Part shown: positions 5,351 to 26,432 of the stretch, piece after piece | Position numbering within the stretch: position 1 is the stretch's first letter | Layout: each line of letters begins with the position of its first letter | Source: Erysipelotrichaceae bacterium OH741_COT-311 | Lineage (GTDB): Bacteria; Bacillota_I; Bacilli_A; Erysipelotrichales; Erysipelotrichaceae | Length of the DNA stretch: 32,000 bases | Direction of reading: 5' to 3' | NCBI GenBank assembly: GCA_003858585.1 | Contig: RQZE01000006.1 | Span: 60,001-92,000, forward strand | Notes under the pieces: model-generated | Told to the model about the DNA's origin: nothing | Databases searched by the model: none | The model's input: only the letters and a program-made list of their open reading frames with translations | Translations under genes and position numbers: made by a program

Positions 5351-6025
5351 AATAGATATGTTTAAAAATCAATTTAGCAATATCTCAAGATATATTAAAA
5401 ACCTAACTCAATCATTTACTGAAAATATAAAACTAAGTGAAGAAGAGCTAGAAAAAGATTATTATTATTTAATTTAGAAGAGTACCTATGATTTTGAAAA
5501 TATGTAAGTGGTTATTACTATCTAAAAAAACAAACTTAATACCATAGAAGAAATTTGAAGGGCAAGGAAAAATTAATAAACGAATAAAGACAATTAGAAG
5601 TAAAAGTCTAGTTATCTTTTTATTTGAAAGAAAGAATGGAAGACATAAAAAAGCAAAAACTCAAAATAAAGATAAAAATAATCAAATTAGAGTGCAAAAA
5701 GTCGTACGTAAATGGAATAGAATATAATGCAGGGTTACATTTTAGTCAAAAAAGTAAAAAACAATGTTTGATAAGATTAAAAAGATTATTGTAAAAAGAA
5801 AAAATATCTAGTTTTTGATTAGAAAGTCTTTGACAAGTAGCAACAGAGCAGATAAAAAAGTAATGTATTTATTTTGATAATAGTAATTTTTGATTGGTTT
5901 ACCTTTATTTGTCTTCATAACAAATTTCTATGCATTTTTACCTATCTTTCACAATTTCGTAGTATAATGTATGCCTATTGTGGCACACCAACAAGCGTGG
6001 TACAATTTACTAAAGGTGGAATGTT

Positions 6026-12901: not shown

Positions 12902-13912
12902 ATGACAGTAAAAGTAGCAATTAATGGTTTTGGACGTATTGGTAGATTAGCATTCCGTCAAATGTTTGTAGCAGATGGTTATGAAGTTGTGGCAATCAAC
13001 GATTTATCAAGCCCTAAAATGTTAGCTCATCTATTAAAATACGATTCAGCACAAGGACCATACCACGGTCATACTGTGGAAGCAAAAGAATCTTCAATTG
13101 TTGTTGATGGTAAGGAAATTGAAATCTATGCAAAAGCAGATGCAAATGAATTACCTTGGAAAGAATTAGATGTTGATGTTGTATTAGAATGTACAGGTTT
13201 CTATACTTCAAAAGAAAAAGCTTCAGCTCATATCAATGCTGGTGCTAAGAAAGTAGTTATTTCAGCTCCTGCCGGTAATGATTTACCAACAGTAGTATTT
13301 GGTGTAAATGAAGACATCATTACAAGTGAAGATAAGATTATTTCTGCTGCTTCATGTACAACAAACTGCTTAGCTCCAATGGCTAAAACATTAAATGATT
13401 ATGCTCCAATTTTAAGTGGTATCATGACAACAGTTCATGCTTATACTGGTGACCAAATGACTTTAGATGGTCCACATCGTAAAAATGATTTACGTCGTGC
13501 TCGTGCTGCTGCAGTGAATATCGTTCCTAACTCAACAGGTGCTGCAAAGGCAATCGGTTTAGTAATTCCTGAATTAAATGGTAAATTAATCGGTTCTGCA
13601 CAACGCGTTCCGGTTCCTACAGGTTCTTCTACTATTTTAGTAGCTGTAGTAAAAGGAAAAGATATCACAAAAGAAGGTATCAATGCTGCTATGAAAGCTG
13701 CAAGTAGTGCATCATTTGGATATACAGAAGAAGAAATCGTTTCTAGCGATGTAATCGGTAATACAAATGGTTCATTGTTTGATGCTACTCAAACAATGGT
13801 TACAAAAGTGGATGAAGATACTTACCAAGTACAAGTTGTTTCTTGGTATGACAATGAAAATTCATACACTAGCCAAATGGTTAGAACAATTAAATACTTC
13901 GCAGGTAAATAA
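12902..13912 (+). CDS. gap: Type I glyceraldehyde-3-phosphate dehydrogenase
   Basis: [12 protein letters not shown]-binding motif and [10 protein letters not shown] active site. High-expression codon bias. AAGGAGG RBS. Confidence 0.95.
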
Positions 13913-18703: not shown

Positions 18704-18734
18704 AAACCTCCTAGTTGTTATCAATAGGAGGTTT
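18704..18734. terminator. Bidirectional terminator between convergent genes
   Basis: aaacctccta (18704-18713) / taggaggttt (18725-18734), 11-nt loop. A T-run follows on the minus strand and a T-rich stretch on the plus strand. Confidence 0.75.
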
Positions 18735-20061
18735 ATTTAATTAAAGGAAAGGTTACTTTAAAGTGTGATCCTTCCTTTGGTTTGGAATGTAGCTCAATAT
18801 TAGCATTGTGTATATCGACAATAGATTTAACTAAAGCTAAACCTAAACCACTTCCCAGTTTACTATCTTTGTTTCTTGCATCATCAATTTGATAGAAACG
18901 ATTCCAGATTTTCTTTTGGTGTTCTTCACTAATGCCCATTCCATTATCTATAATGCTTAAGGAACACGTATGGTGTTCTTTTTTTACTTCAATGGAAATG
19001 GTATTGTTTGTAAATTTTAGAGCATTACTGAATAAATTATCGACTAAGCGATGCATAAGAGTCGCATCGGCTAAAATGATACAGTTTTTATCAATATCAG
19101 TTGTTAGAGTAATGTGTTTGCTTGAGCATAGTTTTTGATAGTCGTTGGTGTGCTCTACAAGGAAAGTTGAGAAATCAAAAGGGGCTAGTTTACTACTTTG
19201 ATGGTGTTTCTGTTTGGCTAATTCCATGATTTGATCAATCATTTCTTTCATTTGAAGGGCTTTTTTGTTAATGATCGCAAAGGATTCTTGGGCTTCTTGT
19301 AAGTTTTCTGCATAGTTTTTTCCATATTCGCTTTCAGAAAGAATAACAGCAACAGGTGTTCTTAATTCATGAGAAACATCATTATTGAATTGCTTTTCTC
19401 TTTGAAAGGTTTGTTCAATCGATTCCAACATTAAATTAAAGGTATTGGCTAGACGAAACAGTTCGTTATTGTTGGCTTTTACGGTAATACGTTTGGAATA
19501 GTCGTTGCTTTCTTTGATTTCTAAAGCGGTATTGGTGATATGATCTACAGGAGAAATAGCTTTTTTTAATATACGATATCCTCCTACAACAATAATGACC
19601 AATAAAAGAGGTCCGATAATGGTGATGGCAGTGATAAATAATGACATATCTACTTCATTGTTTTTGATAGTCATAACAGAACGTAGATAACGTTGTTCAT
19701 CAATCGGTAAATCGTAGTAAAGATATTTTACACTTCCACTGATGTATTGTTCGACGGTACTATTTGTAAAAGGTAGGGTATCATCAAATCCTAAAGGGAT
19801 GTTGTTGACTAATACTTCATGGGATTGACTTCCATAGATGGAAAAGTAAATGCCATCTTCTCCATTGTCTAAATCATGCAGTTCATGGATGGCTTCATAG
19901 CTGGCTTGTACCAGCTCATTTCGACTTTGATTTGAAAATAAAACATCCGAAAGTAATAAAGAAGCGACAATCATTAAGATAATAATAACCACAATAAAAA
20001 AACTATACCAAAAGGTTACCTTAAAGATGATACTTCCTTTTTTACTTCGTTCGTATGACAT
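18733..20061 (-). CDS. Sensor histidine kinase (two TM helices, ~110-aa extracytoplasmic loop, HAMP, HisKA, HATPase_c)
   Basis: H-box VSHELRTPV, N box and G boxes (IIDNGMGI, GSGLGLALV). Overlaps the upstream response regulator by 20 nt. Confidence 0.9.
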   Translation of the reverse strand: MSYERSKKGSIIFKVTFWYSFFIVVIIILMIVASLLLSDVLFSNQSRNELVQASYEAIHELHDLDNGEDGIYFSIYGSQSHEVLVNNIPLGFDDTLPFTNSTVEQYISGSVKYLYYDLPIDEQRYLRSVMTIKNNEVDMSLFITAITIIGPLLLVIIVVGGYRILKKAISPVDHITNTALEIKESNDYSKRITVKANNNELFRLANTFNLMLESIEQTFQREKQFNNDVSHELRTPVAVILSESEYGKNYAENLQEAQESFAIINKKALQMKEMIDQIMELAKQKHHQSSKLAPFDFSTFLVEHTNDYQKLCSSKHITLTTDIDKNCIILADATLMHRLVDNLFSNALKFTNNTISIEVKKEHHTCSLSIIDNGMGISEEHQKKIWNRFYQIDDARNKDSKLGSGLGLALVKSIVDIHNANIELHSKPKEGSHFKVTFPLIK

Positions 20062-20716
20062 AGCCTACCCCTCGTTTGGTTTGAATGATAGAAGGTTTAT
20101 CTTCTAAATCAAGCTTGCGTCTAATATTTTTTATAATAACTTCAATAATATTGGATTCTCCCTCATAATCAAAGTCCCAGACATGTTGACGAATTTGTTC
20201 TTTGTCTTTAATGTGATTTACATTACGGACAAGATACTCGAACACTTCATATTCTTTCGCTGTAAGATCAACAATTTCCTGTTTCTTGAACACACTTTTT
20301 GTTGAAAAATCAATTGTGATGTGTTGAATGGTTACTACATTGGTTGTGTGACTACGATTTAAGCGGCGTAGCAATGCACGAATACGAGCTAAAAGCTCTT
20401 GAAATTCAAAGGGTTTTACGAGGTAGTCATCCGCTCCTAAGTCTAGTCCTTTAATTTTGTCTTCAAGAGAATCTTTCGCTGTCAGCATTAATACCGGAAT
20501 GGTAAAGTTTCGTTTTCTCATGTGTTCAATGAAGGTATAGCCATTCATATTTGGCATCATAATATCTAAGATAATCACATCGTATTCACTGTAGTCTAAG
20601 TAATCAAGGGCTTCTTGTCCGTCAAAGGCAGAATCTACACTGAAGTTATTTTTCTTTAATAGTTTTGTGATGCTTCGGTTTAAATCTTTTTCATCTTCTA
20701 CTAATAGTATTTTCAA
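20042..20716 (-). CDS. OmpR/PhoB-family response regulator
   Basis: Receiver domain (LLVEDE...DIMMP...LTAK) plus a winged-helix C-terminus (RGVGY). I prefer TTG 20716 (MKILLVEDE, 5 nt after the AGGTGA SD). The ORF-track GTG 20725 lies inside that SD. Confidence 0.9.
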   Translation of the reverse strand: MKILLVEDEKDLNRSITKLLKKNNFSVDSAFDGQEALDYLDYSEYDVIILDIMMPNMNGYTFIEHMRKRNFTIPVLMLTAKDSLEDKIKGLDLGADDYLVKPFEFQELLARIRALLRRLNRSHTTNVVTIQHITIDFSTKSVFKKQEIVDLTAKEYEVFEYLVRNVNHIKDKEQIRQHVWDFDYEGESNIIEVIIKNIRRKLDLEDKPSIIQTKRGVGYVIRTK

Positions 20717-20750
20717 ATTTATCACCTATCTCTATTATACTGTATCATAG

Positions 20751-20783
20751 AAAAAATAACTCAGAATCTGAAGACTCTGAGTT
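20751..20783 (-). terminator. Rho-independent terminator after the PepSY gene
   Basis: aactcaga (20758-20765) / tctgagtt (20776-20783), followed on the minus strand by ATTTTTT. Confidence 0.7.
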
Positions 20784-20800
20784 AAAATATAGTAAATGAA

Positions 20801-21541
20801 TTAGTCATCGTAACGATCATCATCGTCCCATTGATCATCCCAGTCATCGTAACGATCATCGTAGTCTACTTCAAAGCGATCATCGTCGTAGTAATCACCG
20901 TATTGATCATCTACATCATAATGATCATCGTCAATGTGGTTTTGAATTATAGCACCAGTATGGGCATCAATTTTTACATCTTTTTTCACGTTATTTTCGA
21001 TTACATCAACATCATATACTAATACACCGTGTTCATAATCTAAATCCATACTTGTGATTCTTGCATTATTAAAGTTATTTGTAATGACTGCTTTTGCTTG
21101 TTCCCAAGTTAACTGTGTTGCAGCTGGTGCAGGTTGACTTGGTTGTGCTGGTTGAGGTTTTACTTGAGGCTTTGTTGGCTGTGTTGGCTTTACCGGTTGT
21201 TGCGGTTTTACAGTAGGTTGATTTGGTTTAACAAATTTTGTTTCTTGCTCATTCTTTAGGATTGCCCCTGTGTTAGCATCAATGTCAAATTCAAATTCTG
21301 TGTTTCCGTTAATTACTTTTACTTCGTATTTTGCTACATTGTGTTCATATTCAAATTCTACTCTTACAACTTTACCGCCATTTGCTTGTTTTAAGGCAAT
21401 GTTTGAAGCATCTTGTGCCGTTAGGGTAGTTGTAATTTGTGTTGGATACGTTGAGTTTGTTTTATGTGCATAGATTGTTGAACCTGCTAGTACTGCTACG
21501 GCTGCTGTGGCGATAACGCCAGATAGAATAAATTTTTTCAT
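20801..21541 (-). CDS. Secreted tandem-PepSY domain protein with a Pro/Gln/Lys linker and a poly-Asp/aromatic C-terminal tail
   Basis: ATG 21541 lies 7 nt after AAGGAG, whereas the ORF-track TTG 21565 would include the SD. It has a signal peptide (MKKFILSGVIATAAVAVLAGSTIYA). Two PepSY-like blocks are present (DASNIALKQANGGKVVRVEFEYEHNVAKYEVKV / TWEQAKAVITNNFNNARITSMDLDYEHGVLVYDVDV). Linker KPNQPTVKPQQPVKPTQPTKPQVKPQPAQPSQP. Tail DDDHYDVDDQYGDYYDDDRFEVDYDDRYDDWDDQWDDDDRYDD. Confidence 0.8.
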   Translation of the reverse strand: MKKFILSGVIATAAVAVLAGSTIYAHKTNSTYPTQITTTLTAQDASNIALKQANGGKVVRVEFEYEHNVAKYEVKVINGNTEFEFDIDANTGAILKNEQETKFVKPNQPTVKPQQPVKPTQPTKPQVKPQPAQPSQPAPAATQLTWEQAKAVITNNFNNARITSMDLDYEHGVLVYDVDVIENNVKKDVKIDAHTGAIIQNHIDDDHYDVDDQYGDYYDDDRFEVDYDDRYDDWDDQWDDDDRYDD

Positions 21542-21596
21542 ATTTGGATTCTCCTTTTCTTTCAAATATTTATTTGTGTCTTTAGATTAACATTGC

Positions 21597-21616
21597 TAAA
21601 TGAATGTTAAATGAAT
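21597..21616 (+). promoter_or_regulatory. Direct-repeat pair TAAATGAAT-N2-TAAATGAAT (11-bp phasing), candidate response-regulator box
   Basis: Exact copies at 21597-21605 and 21608-21616 in the pepSY/mgtE divergent intergenic region. Confidence 0.45.
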
Positions 21617-21679
21617 CGACATTGATTTATTGCAAGGAATTTTTTCTTCTCTTCCTTTGCAACTATATCTTAGAATAGT

Positions 21680-21699
21680 TAAATGAATAGAAAATGAAT
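21680..21699 (+). promoter_or_regulatory. Second direct-repeat pair TAAATGAAT-N2-AAAATGAAT (11-bp phasing)
   Basis: Copies at 21680-21688 and 21691-21699, in the same orientation as the first pair. They lie ~55 nt upstream of an extended -10 TGtTAAAAT (21755-21763), which has only a weak -35. Confidence 0.45.
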
Positions 21700-21787
21700 T
21701 GTAAAAATTTTTAACCATTCTTGATGTATTCTGTTTCTTTCACACTTATTTCTATGTTAAAATTTTTATGATATTTAGGAGGTAGCT

Positions 21788-23161
21788 ATGGATAACGATG
21801 TAAAAGAATTTGAAGAAAAAGAGATAGAACATGAAAAGGCTTTAGAAGTAGCTATCGAGAAGCAAGACAATGAGAAATTAAAAGATATTGTCGAACAGAT
21901 GCATCCGATTGATATTGCTATTGCACTAGAGGATAGTGATGATGAAGATTTAACCTATATTTATAGCAAATTAAATGATGAGCAGATTGCGGAAATCATT
22001 GAGCAAGCGGATGAAGAATTACAAATTAAGATGATTACATTACTGGAAGCATCAAGAGCAATGGGTGTCTTTGAGTATATGTCTAAAGATGACATTGTCG
22101 ATATTTTAGGAATTTTACCGCTGAACAAACGTAAAGAATTGATTAACTTAATGAGAAGTGGCGATAAGAAAATTATTCAAGAGCTTTTGGGTTATGATGA
22201 ACGTACTGCTGGTGGAATTATGACAACCGAGTATGTAGCTGTTTCAGATTCTTTGACGATTCAGCAGACAATTAGTAAGATTAAAGAATTGGCATTAAAA
22301 ACAGAAGTTATTGATACTATTTTTGTAGTAAATCATAAAAAGGAATTAATCGGCAGTGTTGATTTACGTGATATTTTGGTTGCTCCTTATCAAGAGTCAT
22401 TACAACATATCATGAATGAGAATATTATTTCCGTTACACCGGAAACAGATCAAGAGAAAGTGTCGCTTTTAGTATCGAAGTATGACCTACGTGTTATTCC
22501 GGTTGTAAACAAGCGTAATTCTTTGCTGGGAATTATTACGGTAGATGATATTATTGACGTTATCGTGGAAGAATATCAAGAAGATATGTCTCATTTAGCT
22601 GGGACAAGTGTAGAAGAAACGATTTATTCTCCGATAAAGGATTCGATTAAGATGCGTTTGCCTTGGTTAATGGTTAATCTAGTTACTGCGTTTTTGGCTT
22701 CTTTTACGGTTTCGATGTTTGAAGGTACCATTGATAAGGTAACAGCCTTAGCTGCAGCGATGCCCATTGTTGCAGGTATGGGTGGAAATGCCGGTTCTCA
22801 AGAGTTATCAATTATTGTAAGAAGCATTGCTTTAGGAGAAGCCAGTTTGCAAGAGAATTGGACGTTAATCTTTAAAAAAGCTCTGTTGGGGATTATTAAT
22901 GGAGCAATTATAGGATTATTTGCCGGAATTATTCTTTATTTTATGTATGGTAATATCTACTTGGGCTTTATTATTTTCGCATCTATGATTGCCAATTTGG
23001 TGATTGCCGGTGTGGTTGGGGTACTGGTTCCGTTAACGCTTAAGGCATTTAAAGTGGATCCGGCATTAGCAAGTGCCGTATTTGTAACAACGGCGACAGA
23101 TGTTTTGGGATTCTTTATTTTTCTTGGGTTAGCAACCTTGATTATTCATCGTTTGGTATAA
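21788..23161 (+). CDS. mgtE: Magnesium transporter MgtE
   Basis: MgtE N-domain (HPIDIAIALED), tandem CBS pair and a C-terminal 5-TM domain with the GNAGSQ motif. AGGAGG RBS. Confidence 0.93.
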   Translation: MDNDVKEFEEKEIEHEKALEVAIEKQDNEKLKDIVEQMHPIDIAIALEDSDDEDLTYIYSKLNDEQIAEIIEQADEELQIKMITLLEASRAMGVFEYMSKDDIVDILGILPLNKRKELINLMRSGDKKIIQELLGYDERTAGGIMTTEYVAVSDSLTIQQTISKIKELALKTEVIDTIFVVNHKKELIGSVDLRDILVAPYQESLQHIMNENIISVTPETDQEKVSLLVSKYDLRVIPVVNKRNSLLGIITVDDIIDVIVEEYQEDMSHLAGTSVEETIYSPIKDSIKMRLPWLMVNLVTAFLASFTVSMFEGTIDKVTALAAAMPIVAGMGGNAGSQELSIIVRSIALGEASLQENWTLIFKKALLGIINGAIIGLFAGIILYFMYGNIYLGFIIFASMIANLVIAGVVGVLVPLTLKAFKVDPALASAVFVTTATDVLGFFIFLGLATLIIHRLV

Positions 23162-23197: not shown

Positions 23198-23599
23198 GTC
23201 GACATTTAAGTAATGTTAGGATTTATTATTAGATATTTATTATTAGGGAAGGGATAGAGGGGGATATCTAATAAAGAATTCTAGGAGTTCGAAAATGCAT
23301 TTACCATTATAACCTAGCTTACATTTGACCATATAATTTCTTGTGTTTTTCACTTTATGGTCGACTTACCCTAACAATGTACATAAAGTAAAAACGTAAA
23401 ATTATCGGTAGCATTTTGATGTCTTATTTTAGCCAACATATCATTCTTCTGTTGGTAATTTTATTGTAACATTGAATTCTTAAAAAAATGGTGACTATTG
23501 TGTCATATAAGAAAAATTTTCTAAAAAATAGGTGTACTTATCTTTTTTTCTTGAAGTATATAATTCTTCATTTGTCAACTCTAATGCTTATAATAATGG

Positions 23600-23628
23600 T
23601 TGACACTGATATGTAGCTGTGCTATTGT
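23600..23628 (+). promoter_or_regulatory. Sigma-A-type promoter for the feo operon
   Basis: TTGACA (23600-23605), 17-nt spacer, TATTGT (23623-23628). Confidence 0.6.
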
Positions 23629-23635
23629 TATTTAA

Positions 23636-23653
23636 GTTAGATGATACTAACAG
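23636..23653 (+). promoter_or_regulatory. Motif GTTAGA-N4-ACTAACAG (contains the 5-bp inverted repeat GTTAG/CTAAC), copy 1, abutting the feoA SD
   Basis: gttagatgatactaacag begins ~8 nt after the -10 and runs into AGGAG. Confidence 0.5.
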
Positions 23654-23662
23654 GAGATGAAG

Positions 23663-23872
23663 ATGCCACTTACATTTGCAAATTTTAATTCCGAACTTTT
23701 GGTGAAAAAAGTAATTGGTAAAGAAAAACAACAAAGATTATTGGAGTCTTTAGGTTTTGTTGCAGGTGAAAAAGTAGTTGTACTTAGTGAAAGTGGAGGA
23801 AATCTCATTGTTTTAATCAAAGGATCACGAATTGCGATTGATAAAACACTGGCAAGTCGTATTATTGTTTAG
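23663..23872 (+). CDS. feoA: FeoA family protein (copy 1)
   Basis: Small SH3-like FeoA pattern (LESLGFVAGEKVVVL...IAIDKTLASRIIV). I prefer ATG 23663, which lies 6 nt after AGGAG. The ORF-track ATG 23657 abuts the SD. Confidence 0.85.
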   Translation: MPLTFANFNSELLVKKVIGKEKQQRLLESLGFVAGEKVVVLSESGGNLIVLIKGSRIAIDKTLASRIIV

Positions 23873-23881
23873 GAGAGATGT

Positions 23882-24100
23882 ATGACATTAAAAGAGATTG
23901 GTGTAAATCACACATGTATTGTTAGTAAAGTCGTTGGTGATAAGGCGATTAAAAAGCGTTTAATGGATATGGGGATCATTAAAGGTGTAAGTATTAAGGT
24001 AGTTAAAATTGCACCTCTTGGGGATCCGATACAAATTGAATTAAAGGGTTATGAATTGACAATCCGAAAAGAAGAAGCCGACAAAATTATTGTTGGTTAA
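23882..24100 (+). CDS. feoA: FeoA family protein (copy 2)
   Basis: RLMDMGIIKGVSIKVVKIAPLGDPIQIELKGYELTIRKEEADKIIV, a canonical FeoA. AGGAG RBS. Confidence 0.9.
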   Translation: MTLKEIGVNHTCIVSKVVGDKAIKKRLMDMGIIKGVSIKVVKIAPLGDPIQIELKGYELTIRKEEADKIIVG

Positions 24101-24115
24101 TATTTTAAGCTAAAT

Positions 24116-24133
24116 GTTAGAGTTTACTAACAG
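24116..24133 (+). promoter_or_regulatory. Motif GTTAGA-N4-ACTAACAG, copy 2, upstream of the feoB SD
   Basis: gttagagtttactaacag. It is identical to copy 1 at 14 of 18 positions, differing only in the 4-nt spacer. Confidence 0.5.
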
Positions 24134-24149
24134 ACAAAGGGGTAAAGAG

Positions 24150-26270
24150 ATGAAAACAATAGCTTTAGTAGGAAATCCAAATAGTGGGAAGACCACATTG
24201 TTTAATGAATTAACAGGGGCAACACATACGGTTGGGAATTGGCCTGGAGTAACGGTTGAAAAGAAACAGGGACATTTACGTGGAAATAAACATATAACAA
24301 TTGTAGATTTACCGGGAATTTATTCGCTTTCACCTTACACATTGGAAGAAGTGATTACACGTGAGTTTTTAACAGAAGGGAATCCGGATGTTATTTTAAA
24401 TATTGTAGATGCCTCAAACTTAGAACGTAATTTATATTTAACGACACAATTACTAGAAATTGGAAAACCGGTGATTGTGGCATTAAATATGATTGATGTT
24501 GTTAAGAAGAATCATGATGTGATTGATGTGTTCAAACTTAGTCAAATATTGAACTGTCCAATCATTGAATTAAGTGCAACAAAGGGTATTGGATTAAAGG
24601 AATTGATTGTAACGTTAAAAGAAGAGGTTTCTGTTCCTTCTTATATCACTTTTAATTCAACAATTGAAGAAGCCTTAAGTGCAATCGGCTATTCTCGTTA
24701 TAATGCGATTAAACTCTTAGAGCAAGATGAAAAAATCGTAAAACAAATGCATTTGACGCAAGAAGAAGAACAAAAGATTCAAGTCGTGGTTTCTAAATTA
24801 GAAGAACAATTGGATGATGATGCAGCGAGTATTATTACGGCAAATCGTTATCAAGTAATTTCTGAAATTTTGAAGGATTCTTATCGAAAAAATCGTAAAG
24901 GTTTGTCTTTGACTGATAAAATTGATAAGGTGGTTACCAATAAATGGCTTGGATTGCCTATCTTCTTTGCGATCTTTTGGTTAATGTATTATTTGTCAAT
25001 TTCGACGATTGGAGATATGTTTATCGGCCATGTGGAAGAAATTGGTGGTGTCATACAAGAGTTTGTAAATAATGGATTGGTATCTTTGGGTGCCGGTGAA
25101 GTTATGATTGATTTTGTGGTCAATGGTATTATTGGTAGTATTGTTCCTATCTTTACTTTTGTGCCTCAATTAATGATTATGTTTTTCTTTTTAGCATTAT
25201 TGGAAGATAGTGGGTATATGGCGCGTATTGCCTTTATCATGGACCGTGTTTTTTCTAAATTTGGATTAAGTGGGAAGTCATTTATTCCAATGTTGCTTGG
25301 GACAGGTTGTTCTGTTCCGGGTATTATGGCTACTCGTACGATTGAGCAAGAAAACGATCGTAAAATGACGATTTTGCTTACGCCATTTATACCTTGTGGT
25401 GCGAAACTTCCGGTTTTTGCAATGATTATTGTTATGATGTTTAATGGTGCAGCTTGGATTGGTCCGACGATTTATTTAATCGGCTTTGCCGGAGTTGTTA
25501 TTTCAGGTATTGTCTTAAAGAGAACAAAGCGCTTTAAGGGCGATCCTGCACCGTTTATTATGGAGTTACCGGATTATAAATTACCTCGCTTTAAGGGTGT
25601 TGTGATTCATATGTGGGATAAAGCAAAACACTTTATCATAAAAGCCGGTACCGTTATTTTCTTAGCTTGTGCAGTTCTTTGGGTATTACAAAATTTTGCA
25701 TTCCCATTTACCTATGTAGGTCCAGAAGCGATTGATCAAAGTATTTTGGCTACCATTGGAAATGGTTTGCGCTGGATTTTTGTTCCTCTTGGATTTGGAG
25801 ATTCTTGGGGTAGTTCGGTAGCAACGATTACAGGTTTAATTGCAAAAGAGGTTGTCGTTGCGACACTTGCTTCTATCGGCAATAACACAGATATTTATTT
25901 TTCTCAAGTTTCGGCGTTTTCATTTATGGTCTTCACTATTTTTGCAGCACCATGTGTGGCTGCTATTGGGGCAATGAAGCGTGAACTTGGAAGTATGAAA
26001 GAAACATTGTGGGCTTTAGGGTTTCAAACAGGTTTGGCTTATGTAATGGCATTGCTTGTCAATGTGGTTGGAAATTTAATCTTTAAAGGAACACAAGTGG
26101 TAGAAAAAGTGAAATTAGATCCAACCATGTTGGAATCTGCAAGTGAAGAAGCAATTATTCAAGGTGATATTGTTATGATTGTCTTTGGAATTTTATTAGG
26201 AATTGCATTGTTGTATATGATTGTTGAGTTTATCAAGAAGTTTGTTATGAAAAAGGCTGTGGTGAAGTAA
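24150..26270 (+). CDS. feoB: Ferrous iron transport protein B
   Basis: The N-terminal G-domain MKTIALVGNPNSGKTTLFN is followed by a polytopic permease domain. ATG 24150 follows AAAGGGG. The ORF-track start 24114 adds a 12-aa extension covering the motif and the RBS. Confidence 0.93.
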   Translation: MKTIALVGNPNSGKTTLFNELTGATHTVGNWPGVTVEKKQGHLRGNKHITIVDLPGIYSLSPYTLEEVITREFLTEGNPDVILNIVDASNLERNLYLTTQLLEIGKPVIVALNMIDVVKKNHDVIDVFKLSQILNCPIIELSATKGIGLKELIVTLKEEVSVPSYITFNSTIEEALSAIGYSRYNAIKLLEQDEKIVKQMHLTQEEEQKIQVVVSKLEEQLDDDAASIITANRYQVISEILKDSYRKNRKGLSLTDKIDKVVTNKWLGLPIFFAIFWLMYYLSISTIGDMFIGHVEEIGGVIQEFVNNGLVSLGAGEVMIDFVVNGIIGSIVPIFTFVPQLMIMFFFLALLEDSGYMARIAFIMDRVFSKFGLSGKSFIPMLLGTGCSVPGIMATRTIEQENDRKMTILLTPFIPCGAKLPVFAMIIVMMFNGAAWIGPTIYLIGFAGVVISGIVLKRTKRFKGDPAPFIMELPDYKLPRFKGVVIHMWDKAKHFIIKAGTVIFLACAVLWVLQNFAFPFTYVGPEAIDQSILATIGNGLRWIFVPLGFGDSWGSSVATITGLIAKEVVVATLASIGNNTDIYFSQVSAFSFMVFTIFAAPCVAAIGAMKRELGSMKETLWALGFQTGLAYVMALLVNVVGNLIFKGTQVVEKVKLDPTMLESASEEAIIQGDIVMIVFGILLGIALLYMIVEFIKKFVMKKAVVK

Positions 26271-26432
26271 ATGAAGCCAATTGATATCATTATTCTTGTT
26301 GTAATAGGAGTACTTATTGTACTAAGTATACGATTTCTTAAGAAATCAAAAGGGTGTGCTGGATGTGGATGCAGCTGCCAATGTAAAGAAGATAGTAAGT
26401 CTAATATTAAAAAAGCTTACTATCATGAGTGA
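26271..26432 (+). CDS. FeoB-associated Cys-rich membrane protein (53 aa), not in the supplied ORF track
   Basis: ATG abuts the feoB TAA. Translation: MKPIDIIILVVIGVLIVLSIRFLKKSKGCAGCGCSCQCKEDSKSNIKKAYYHE. One TM helix followed by a CxxCxCxCxC cluster. Stop TGA at 26430-26432. Confidence 0.8.
   Translation: MKPIDIIILVVIGVLIVLSIRFLKKSKGCAGCGCSCQCKEDSKSNIKKAYYHE

Follow-up and report, generated by a model that had tools for sequence, protein, structure and literature searches.

The window analyzed here, the whole stretch of 32,000 nucleotides from contig RQZE01000006.1 of Erysipelotrichaceae bacterium OH741_COT-311, contains two pairs of short direct repeats in the spacer between a PepSY-domain gene (pepSY) and the divergent gene of an MgtE transporter (mgtE), close to a two-component system formed by an OmpR-type response regulator (RR) and a histidine kinase (HK). 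These repeats, and the control of pepSY that they appear to provide, are the subject of this study. On the minus strand each pair reads ATTCATTTnnnATTCATTTA, with the core TTCAT-N6-TTCAT, and a -10-like hexamer lies exactly 10 nt past each pair; the resulting modules are called P1, nearer to pepSY, and P2. The genes and features on which the argument turns are as follows.

18733-20061, minus strand: HK gene, with the Pfam domains HAMP, HisKA, and HATPase
20042-20716, minus strand: RR gene, with the Pfam domains Response_reg (E = 2.7e-33) and Trans_reg_C (E = 6.9e-22)
20801-21541, minus strand: pepSY, with Pfam PF03413 in two stretches (E = 1.3e-22)
21584-21589, minus strand: P1 -10 hexamer TAATCT, 10 nt 3' of the second TTCAT
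21597-21616, minus strand: P1 tandem box, ATTCATTTAAC ATTCATTTA, predicted phosphorylated-regulator dimer site in the place of a -35
21667-21672, minus strand: P2 -10 hexamer TAAGAT, 10 nt 3' of the second TTCAT
21680-21699, minus strand: P2 tandem box, ATTCATTTTCT ATTCATTTA, predicted second regulator site
21788-23161, plus strand: mgtE, assigned by Pfam

Sequence reading together with a pattern search places exact plus-strand copies of TAAATGAAT at 20793-20801, 21597-21605, 21608-21616, and 21680-21688 and an exact plus-strand copy of AAAATGAAT at 21691-21699. Those between 21597 and 21699 form two tandem pairs in the same orientation, with a period of exactly 11 bp and 83 bp from pair to pair, and the positions, phasing, and separation given in an earlier sequence-only reading of this DNA are thereby all confirmed. 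Operators of OmpR-type regulators have two direct half-sites at 10 to 11 bp center to center, and the distance is exactly 11 bp in both pairs and in all sites found in relatives. As a single word, the 9-mer is not enriched: the four exact copies of TAAATGAAT compare with 2.0 expected in the window, at least four were found in 17 of 100 shuffles, and with one mismatch there are 41 copies against 43 expected. The tandem 20-mer TAAATGAATNNTAAATGAAT, however, occurs twice with at most one mismatch, whereas none of 100 dinucleotide-preserving shuffles contained any, and with at most three mismatches it is again found twice, against 0.51 expected. Only the phased clustering is therefore significant, and the caution attached to the sequence-only reading, that the 8-mer alone is expected by chance and its clustering is what deserves attention, was right. 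One further copy of the 8-mer, at 13144, was absent from that reading and is trivial.

These counts bear directly on the idea that the repeats are chance matches in AT-rich intergenic DNA, or what is left of a local duplication, without any bound protein. The chance-level frequency of the single 9-mer would fit such an origin, but the tandem arrangement does not recur in shuffled sequence. Apart from the boxes and the -10 pattern, the modules have no sequence in common, which rules out a recent duplication, and the motif, its orientation, and its geometry are kept across four phyla beside regulators of the same subfamily. We attach next to no probability to this explanation.

Read on the minus strand, both modules have the layout of a class II promoter, with boxes about 10 bp before a -10 and no -35 consensus, and a consensus scan of the pepSY-mgtE spacer found no sigma-70-type pair of -35 and -10. 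The pho box recognized by PhoB consists of two 11-bp direct repeats that end about 10 bp before the -10, with no recognizable -35. This geometry is reproduced at both modules of the window and at all sites of relatives, although the half-site sequence is a different one, the regulator belongs to another RR subfamily, and contact with sigma region 4 is assumed. By the spacing, transcription from P1 is predicted to start near 21577, with a leader of ~36 nt to the pepSY ATG at 21541, and P2, if it functions as a promoter, would start near 21660 and give a leader of ~118 nt that crosses P1. The predicted P2 transcript begins with a hairpin, UUGCAAAGGAA…UUCCUUGCAA (21631-21660, minus strand), and the 121-nt P2 leader folds better than its shuffles (z = -2.72). 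This hairpin could be a stabilizing 5' stem-loop or nothing.

A position weight matrix (PWM) was built from 18 sites of other organisms, with the window sites left out. Scored on the boxes alone, P2 reaches 22.7 bits, the best value in the window, and P1 reaches 20.6, against 9.0 for the next-best site and a shuffle maximum of 17.0; P1 and P2, both on the minus strand, are the only sites that the matrix finds in the 32 kb. When the -10 is included, the two modules score 27.3 and 24.8 bits (P2 being listed at 24.8), and the next-best site scores 6.0. The 18 sites had been picked on their two TTCAT cores only, and the -10 is therefore an independent signal: TAnnAT stands at a fixed 10 nt (11 in one site), and A at +27 and T at +31 are each present in 17 of 18 sites. 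The P1 hexamer TAATCT itself recurs at equal distance in two Peptoniphilus loci (L009 and L010).

The comparison with related loci gives these modules their context. A scan of species-representative genomes with the RR protein yielded 80 loci, with best identities of 58-60%, and a protein search added closer RR relatives (61-71%), labeled S. ratti, S. gordonii, S. agalactiae, and Leptotrichia, plus metagenome contigs. In the closest of the 80 loci, TTCAT-N6-TTCAT always lies just upstream of the RR gene, directed toward it and followed by a -10-like hexamer; such RR-adjacent boxes are found in Fusobacterium, a spirochaete bin, a Lachnospiraceae bin, Peptoniphilus, and Gemelliphila. The complete module (TTCAT-N6-TTCAT, N10, TAnnAT) precedes the RR gene or an adjacent PepSY gene in Fusobacterium, Campylobacter, Streptococcus, Peptoniphilus, Leptotrichia, Gemelliphila, and the spirochaete bin, and three more loci show the same arrangement. 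Over the 89 non-window loci (923 kb), which are partly redundant and include ~20 Campylobacter bins, the regulator's strand holds 39 exact copies of TTCAT-N6-TTCAT and the opposite strand a single one, with ~5.0 expected in all. In a subset of the loci the sites comprise 28 distinct sequences, of which the window's own species contributes 4, and 27 of the 28 read in the regulator's direction. Nearly all distinct sites lie just 5' of an RR gene or a PepSY gene, and throughout the ~30 distinct sites of relatives the module points at its target with the same geometry.

The gene that follows the module varies with the locus. The boxes precede pepSY in the window and directly precede the RR gene in Fusobacterium, Peptoniphilus, and Gemelliphila. 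A module-preceded PepSY gene lies upstream of the RR and HK genes in Campylobacter, S. ratti, Leptotrichia, L084, L091, and L098, and it follows them in S. gordonii and two Oscillospiraceae bins; in L100, too, a PepSY gene stands downstream of the module. One site, in the spirochaete bin (L006, 3048-3125), is a second full module (TTCAT-N6-TTCAT, N10, AATAAT) before a gene for a family-4 glycosyltransferase, which would be a member of the regulon beyond PepSY or RR. In L091 the module adjoins integrase and plasmid-replication genes; this neighborhood and the spread of the same helix and boxes over several phyla suggest that the PepSY-RR-HK module moves horizontally.

The site is kept beside orthologous regulators and varies with the recognition helix, which is SNIIEVIIKNIRRKL in the RR of the window. 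Regulators with the helix SN(I/V)I(D/E)V(L/I)IKN(I/L)R(K/R/Q)K (the …VLIKNIRKK… type) have boxes, with three exceptions, two of them without upstream sequence, and none of ~50 RRs with DVYIRYLRKK-type helices (42-50% identity) has them. Regulators with the same helix and the same boxes, at 53-71% identity, are found in Fusobacteriota, Campylobacterota, the spirochaete bin, and several orders of Bacillota (L001-L031, L084-L092, and L098-L100). A cognate RR with a winged-helix (Trans_reg_C) domain is encoded within the system itself, at 20042-20716. Given this strong comparative evidence, the four repeats are very probably binding sites of the neighboring RR, as the sequence-only reading had proposed. 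Operators of the Fur, Zur, or MntR type were considered and rejected, as those are inverted repeats and the repeats of the window are direct.

Contigs of the same species add a view at short range. The gene arrangement of the window is kept in five of them (L081-L083, L093, and L097). In L081-L083 the spacer equals that of the window save for one substitution (L082) and a one-base difference in a T run (L083), and in L097 two positions differ. The most informative is L093, with an MgtE 97% identical to that of the window, in which the 244-bp spacer carries 15 substitutions and 2 indels. None of these changes falls in a box core or in either minus-strand -10 hexamer, and two of the substitutions affect the 2-nt spacers that separate the half-sites; within the P2 boxes only the 2-nt spacer is altered, and in P1 all conserved positions are unchanged. 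By a back-of-envelope estimate, the chance that the changes would spare the cores and the -10 hexamers is ~0.04. The predicted P2 leader hairpin is altered in the same strain by a 5-nt insertion in its loop and by one changed stem base. The 5-nt insertion changes the distance between the modules from 83 to 88 bp, and it follows that the modules behave as independent units and not as one phased array. Beyond the species there is a gap in the protein collection, in which identity drops from 99% to 71% for RR and from 97% to 68% for MgtE and no intermediate relatives were found.

When the minus-strand reading of TTCAT, the -10 at N10, and the module of relatives are combined, both pairs are best read as pho-box-like pepSY promoters in which the boxes replace the -35. 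For the pair at 21597-21616 this agrees with the sequence-only reading, which had set it at the place of the pepSY -35, and the conserved geometry of N10 and -10 supports that placement. It can be hypothesized that a dimer of the phosphorylated RR binds the two TTCAT half-sites head-to-tail, 11 bp apart, and that the bound regulator would then substitute for a -35 and bring in RNA polymerase, in the manner of PhoB at its pho boxes. In this way P1 and P2 would be tandem, signal-dependent promoters transcribing pepSY. As a whole, we consider it likely that the RR-bound P1 and P2 form two tandem pepSY promoters with feedback by read-through, an explanation that is drawn from sequence comparison.

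Several observations weigh against this explanation and should be set beside it. The cores in the PWM are fixed by the way in which its sites were selected, and the redundancy of the loci means that ~12-15 independent lineages, and not 39, stand behind the sites. The hexamers TAAGAT and TAATCT depart from TATAAT, and the chance of finding TAnnAT at one fixed spot in AT-rich DNA of this composition is ~1%. Finally, Fusobacterium sp. oral taxon 370 (L004) has the same helix type and no exact TTCAT-N6-TTCAT; its RR gene follows another gene almost directly, and the site may be degenerate or further upstream.

Some of these points would equally suit an arrangement in which only P1 is a promoter, while 21680-21699 is an auxiliary upstream site that raises the occupancy or cooperativity of the regulator and TAAGAT is fortuitous. 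Multiple phased sites are common in the OmpR family, as with the OmpR sites of ompF and extra pho boxes, and TAAGAT is a weak -10 for which the ~1% chance just given applies. The relatives speak for a promoter at the distal position, however. In L084/L085, the closest RR relative (70%), two modules lie 111 bp apart upstream of PepSY, each with a -10-like hexamer at N10, which at the distal module is TACCAT. The distance between modules varies, from 83 bp in the window to 88 bp in L093 and 111 bp in L084. These distances do not correspond to whole helical turns, a point that speaks against a fixed cooperative array. Leaders as long as that proposed for P2 are found elsewhere, with 116-177 nt at single modules of other loci. 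A purely auxiliary role for the P2 pair is thus unlikely in our view, and tandem promoters remain the preferred account.

How the regulation of pepSY by P1 and P2 would reach the two-component genes can be seen from the features between pepSY and the RR gene.

20734-20739, minus strand: TATAAT, candidate basal promoter of the RR-HK operon, proposed from sequence only
20772-20744, minus strand: TTCAGA-N17-TATGAT, alternative RR-HK promoter, on the same basis
20757-20784, minus strand: intrinsic terminator after pepSY, a 12-bp stem followed by TTTTTTCTAT
20793-20801, plus strand: isolated TAAATGAAT, overlapping the last base of the pepSY stop codon

The PWM scan found no TTCAT tandem site in the region of the RR-HK basal promoter. 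As the RR and HK genes lie behind a terminator and have a basal promoter of their own, feedback to them would be indirect, through read-through only. The same layout of PepSY stop, hairpin, TATAAT, and RR gene is also present in L084, L087, and L091. A comparable circuit was shown by experiment in group B Streptococcus for SaeRS and pbsP: the target promoter requires the regulator, the operon is transcribed from a constitutive promoter, and feedback arises only by read-through (PMC11502775). In both systems the target gene lies directly upstream of the RR-HK operon, with the same layout, although the target in Streptococcus is an adhesin and not a PepSY protein, the two-component system is a different one, and the spacer between pbsP and saeRS is without a canonical terminator (PMC11502775), whereas the window has a clear one. 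Identity of the present system with SaeRS itself was considered and rejected: the homologue labeled S. agalactiae (P0068, 61%) is a PepSY-RR-HK locus.

The isolated copy at 20793-20801 is present, as the sequence-only reading had it, and overlaps the pepSY stop. It shares TAATTCATTTAC with a Fusobacterium site (L002) that lies directly after a PepSY stop codon. As a functional site it was rejected, since what would be its second half-site is degenerate, a tandem partner is missing, and no -10 lies at N10. In relatives with this layout, TTCAT is absent from the stretch between the PepSY stop and the RR gene. The copy is probably a chance match or a relic, and not functional.

The proteins themselves place the locus among known PepSY systems. 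Here and in most relatives, the gene for a PepSY protein that carries a secretion signal is separated by no more than a few genes from those for an HK and an RR. The predicted product of pepSY has an N-terminal signal or anchor (the hydrophobic N-terminus MKKFILSGVIATAAVAVLAGS, judged by eye), two PepSY domains joined by a Pro/Gln-rich linker, and a very acidic C-terminal tail. Among relatives, the PepSY protein of L091 has a His-rich N-terminal region, and that of S. ratti (L087) carries DDDRHDEDHDED at its C-terminus. The tail in the window, DDDHYDVDDQYGDYYDDDRFEVDYDDRYDDWDDQWDDDDRYDD (20804-20935, minus strand), comprises ~43 residues and is extremely acidic and rich in Asp, Tyr, and Trp. 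The acidic tail and the metal-binding-like stretches of relatives are hints of cation binding. The HK has hydrophobic segments around its N-terminal region, its topology being judged by eye from the translation. In NCBIfam the RR is nearest to RppA and the heavy-metal regulators CopR/CzcR, all below curated cut-offs, and the HK is nearest to a heavy-metal sensor kinase family, again below cut-off.

PepSY-HK-RR modules are known across several phyla, including Fusobacteria and Terrabacteria, and in Vibrio cholerae DbfQ acts on the sensor DbfS and the operon is under positive autoregulation at the dbfQRS promoter (PMC12714742). The window resembles DbfQRS in that a small secreted PepSY protein is encoded with a two-component system. 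Unlike in DbfQRS, a terminator and a basal promoter for the RR and HK genes stand between them and pepSY, and the PepSY protein combines two domains with an acidic tail. By analogy with DbfQ, the secreted PepSY protein would probably modulate the sensor domain of the kinase and so close the loop.

BqsR of Pseudomonas aeruginosa, which is likewise linked to PepSY, binds TTAAG-N6-TTAAG (PMC13522522), and the bqsPQRST operon is autoregulated (PMC13522522; PMC12714742). The BqsR/CarR system shares with the window an OmpR-family RR beside PepSY genes and a site made of a 5-mer, a 6-nt gap, and a 5-mer with an 11-bp period. It is unlike the window in its core, TTAAG instead of TTCAT, in the nearest families of the RR (RppA and CopR/CzcR here, below cut-off), and in that BqsR controls feo, whereas the feoAAB genes of the window are without an upstream box. 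The hosts differ as well, for the window appears to come from a Bacillota bacterium, its closest MgtE being that of a Tissierellia metagenome-assembled genome. At HssR and HitR sites, a few base differences in the direct repeats set the specificity of the OmpR-family regulator (PMC3968170). These sites, upstream of hrtAB and hitPQRS, resemble those of the window as direct repeats recognized by an OmpR-family regulator and differ in their targets, which are ABC exporters and not PepSY genes. The S. aureus HssR repeat, which we take to be GTTCATATT-N2-GTTCATATT, would contain TTCAT-N6-TTCAT. In the literature searches made, no paper was found on the TTCAT-N6-TTCAT motif of the present subfamily. 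With PepSY-HK-RR modules such as BqsPQRS and DbfQRS as reference, the switch adds one more member to a known kind and shows nothing out of the ordinary.

On the other side of the spacer, the sequence-only reading had coupled the two-component system to mgtE as well as to pepSY. The pepSY half of that proposal agrees with the module geometry and with the relatives; the mgtE half is not supported, as the boxes face away from that gene. It had assigned the pair at 21680-21699 to activation of mgtE, but this pair has its own minus-strand -10, TAAGAT at N10, in the same way as P1. The extended -10 of mgtE, TGTTAAAAT at 21755-21763, is present as described, and its poor -35 had been taken as the sign of an activated target. 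Extended -10 promoters of this kind need neither a good -35 nor an activator, and a poor -35 is therefore no evidence that one is required. The closest relative of MgtE (68%, in a Tissierellia metagenome-assembled genome, L094) has no PepSY or two-component neighbor, and its gene has a short leader with a canonical TTGACA-N17-TATAAA promoter (5930-6000).

It could still be argued that 21680-21699 is an upstream activating site for mgtE, possibly besides driving pepSY, so that pepSY and a Mg2+ transporter would be co-regulated from the region that they share. The pair lies 36 bp upstream of the would-be mgtE -35, at ~-71 to -90 from the predicted start. The predicted mgtE leader is ~18 nt long and contains no M-box (ykoK leader), since no Rfam family reached the gathering score anywhere in the window, and another form of control is thus conceivable. 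Some OmpR-family regulators, such as PhoP of Salmonella, act from boxes in either orientation. The metal-responsive families nearest to RR and HK, both below cut-offs, and the strongly acidic PepSY tail would also fit, as would the control of a metal transporter operon, feo, by the PepSY-linked BqsR (PMC13522522).

The relatives and the window itself nevertheless argue the other way. The PWM scan of the window found no plus-strand site facing mgtE above background, mgtE lies within 6 kb of the RR gene in 0 of 80 RR relatives, and it stands beside this system only in the window's species, so that neither a facing box nor a conserved association links it to the regulon. L084/L085 has two modules without any divergent gene. 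In L100, where PepSY and RR genes diverge, the single module faces PepSY only and serves only the gene that it faces. A 1-nt insertion in L093 between the 21680-21699 pair and the mgtE -10 indicates that their spacing is not fixed. Together with the orientation of the boxes and the sufficiency of an extended -10, these observations make an activating site for mgtE quite improbable, and a link between mgtE and the boxes is not supported: mgtE would be a neighbor with an extended -10 promoter of its own. A plus-strand ATTCT-N6-ATTCT at 21717-21732 that does face mgtE was also considered. The half-sites of this weak repeat have an 11-bp period, but the invariant A is missing, the mgtE -10 is 24 nt away, and the PWM score does not rise above background; the repeat is probably a chance match. 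As a possible parallel, B. subtilis ykoGHIJ presumably lies beside ykoK (mgtE), a synteny on which a literature search yielded nothing of use.

Further downstream of mgtE, the window carries feoA, feoA, and feoB, and no box was found upstream of these genes. The feoA-feoA-feoB block (~23200-26330) is present in the window and in L081 and missing from the same-species contigs L082 and L097, in which a gene for a 1091-residue UvrD-type helicase directly follows mgtE. This ~3-kb iron-transporter block is therefore variable between strains.

The possible role of P2 at both genes should be judged by the same evidence. In such a bifunctional arrangement RR would drive pepSY and also modulate mgtE, through a reverse-oriented site or through interference between the divergent promoters, which we regard as very doubtful. 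In many other Bacillota the M-box riboswitch controls Mg2+ transporters. Were the bifunctional arrangement true, a cation-sensing PepSY system with an Asp-rich tail would take over the role of that riboswitch in the control of a Mg2+ transporter.

For the family, the preferred explanation, with P1 and P2 as RR-dependent pepSY promoters, would provide a recognition motif, TTCAT-N6-TTCAT followed by N10 and a -10, for a cross-phylum, PepSY-associated two-component subfamily without a described signal, represented in oral and gut Fusobacterium, Campylobacter, Streptococcus, Peptoniphilus, and Leptotrichia. The motif would allow the regulon to be predicted in complete genomes, and the pepSY promoter could be used as a reporter in screens for the signal, as was done with PdbfQRS-lux (PMC12714742).

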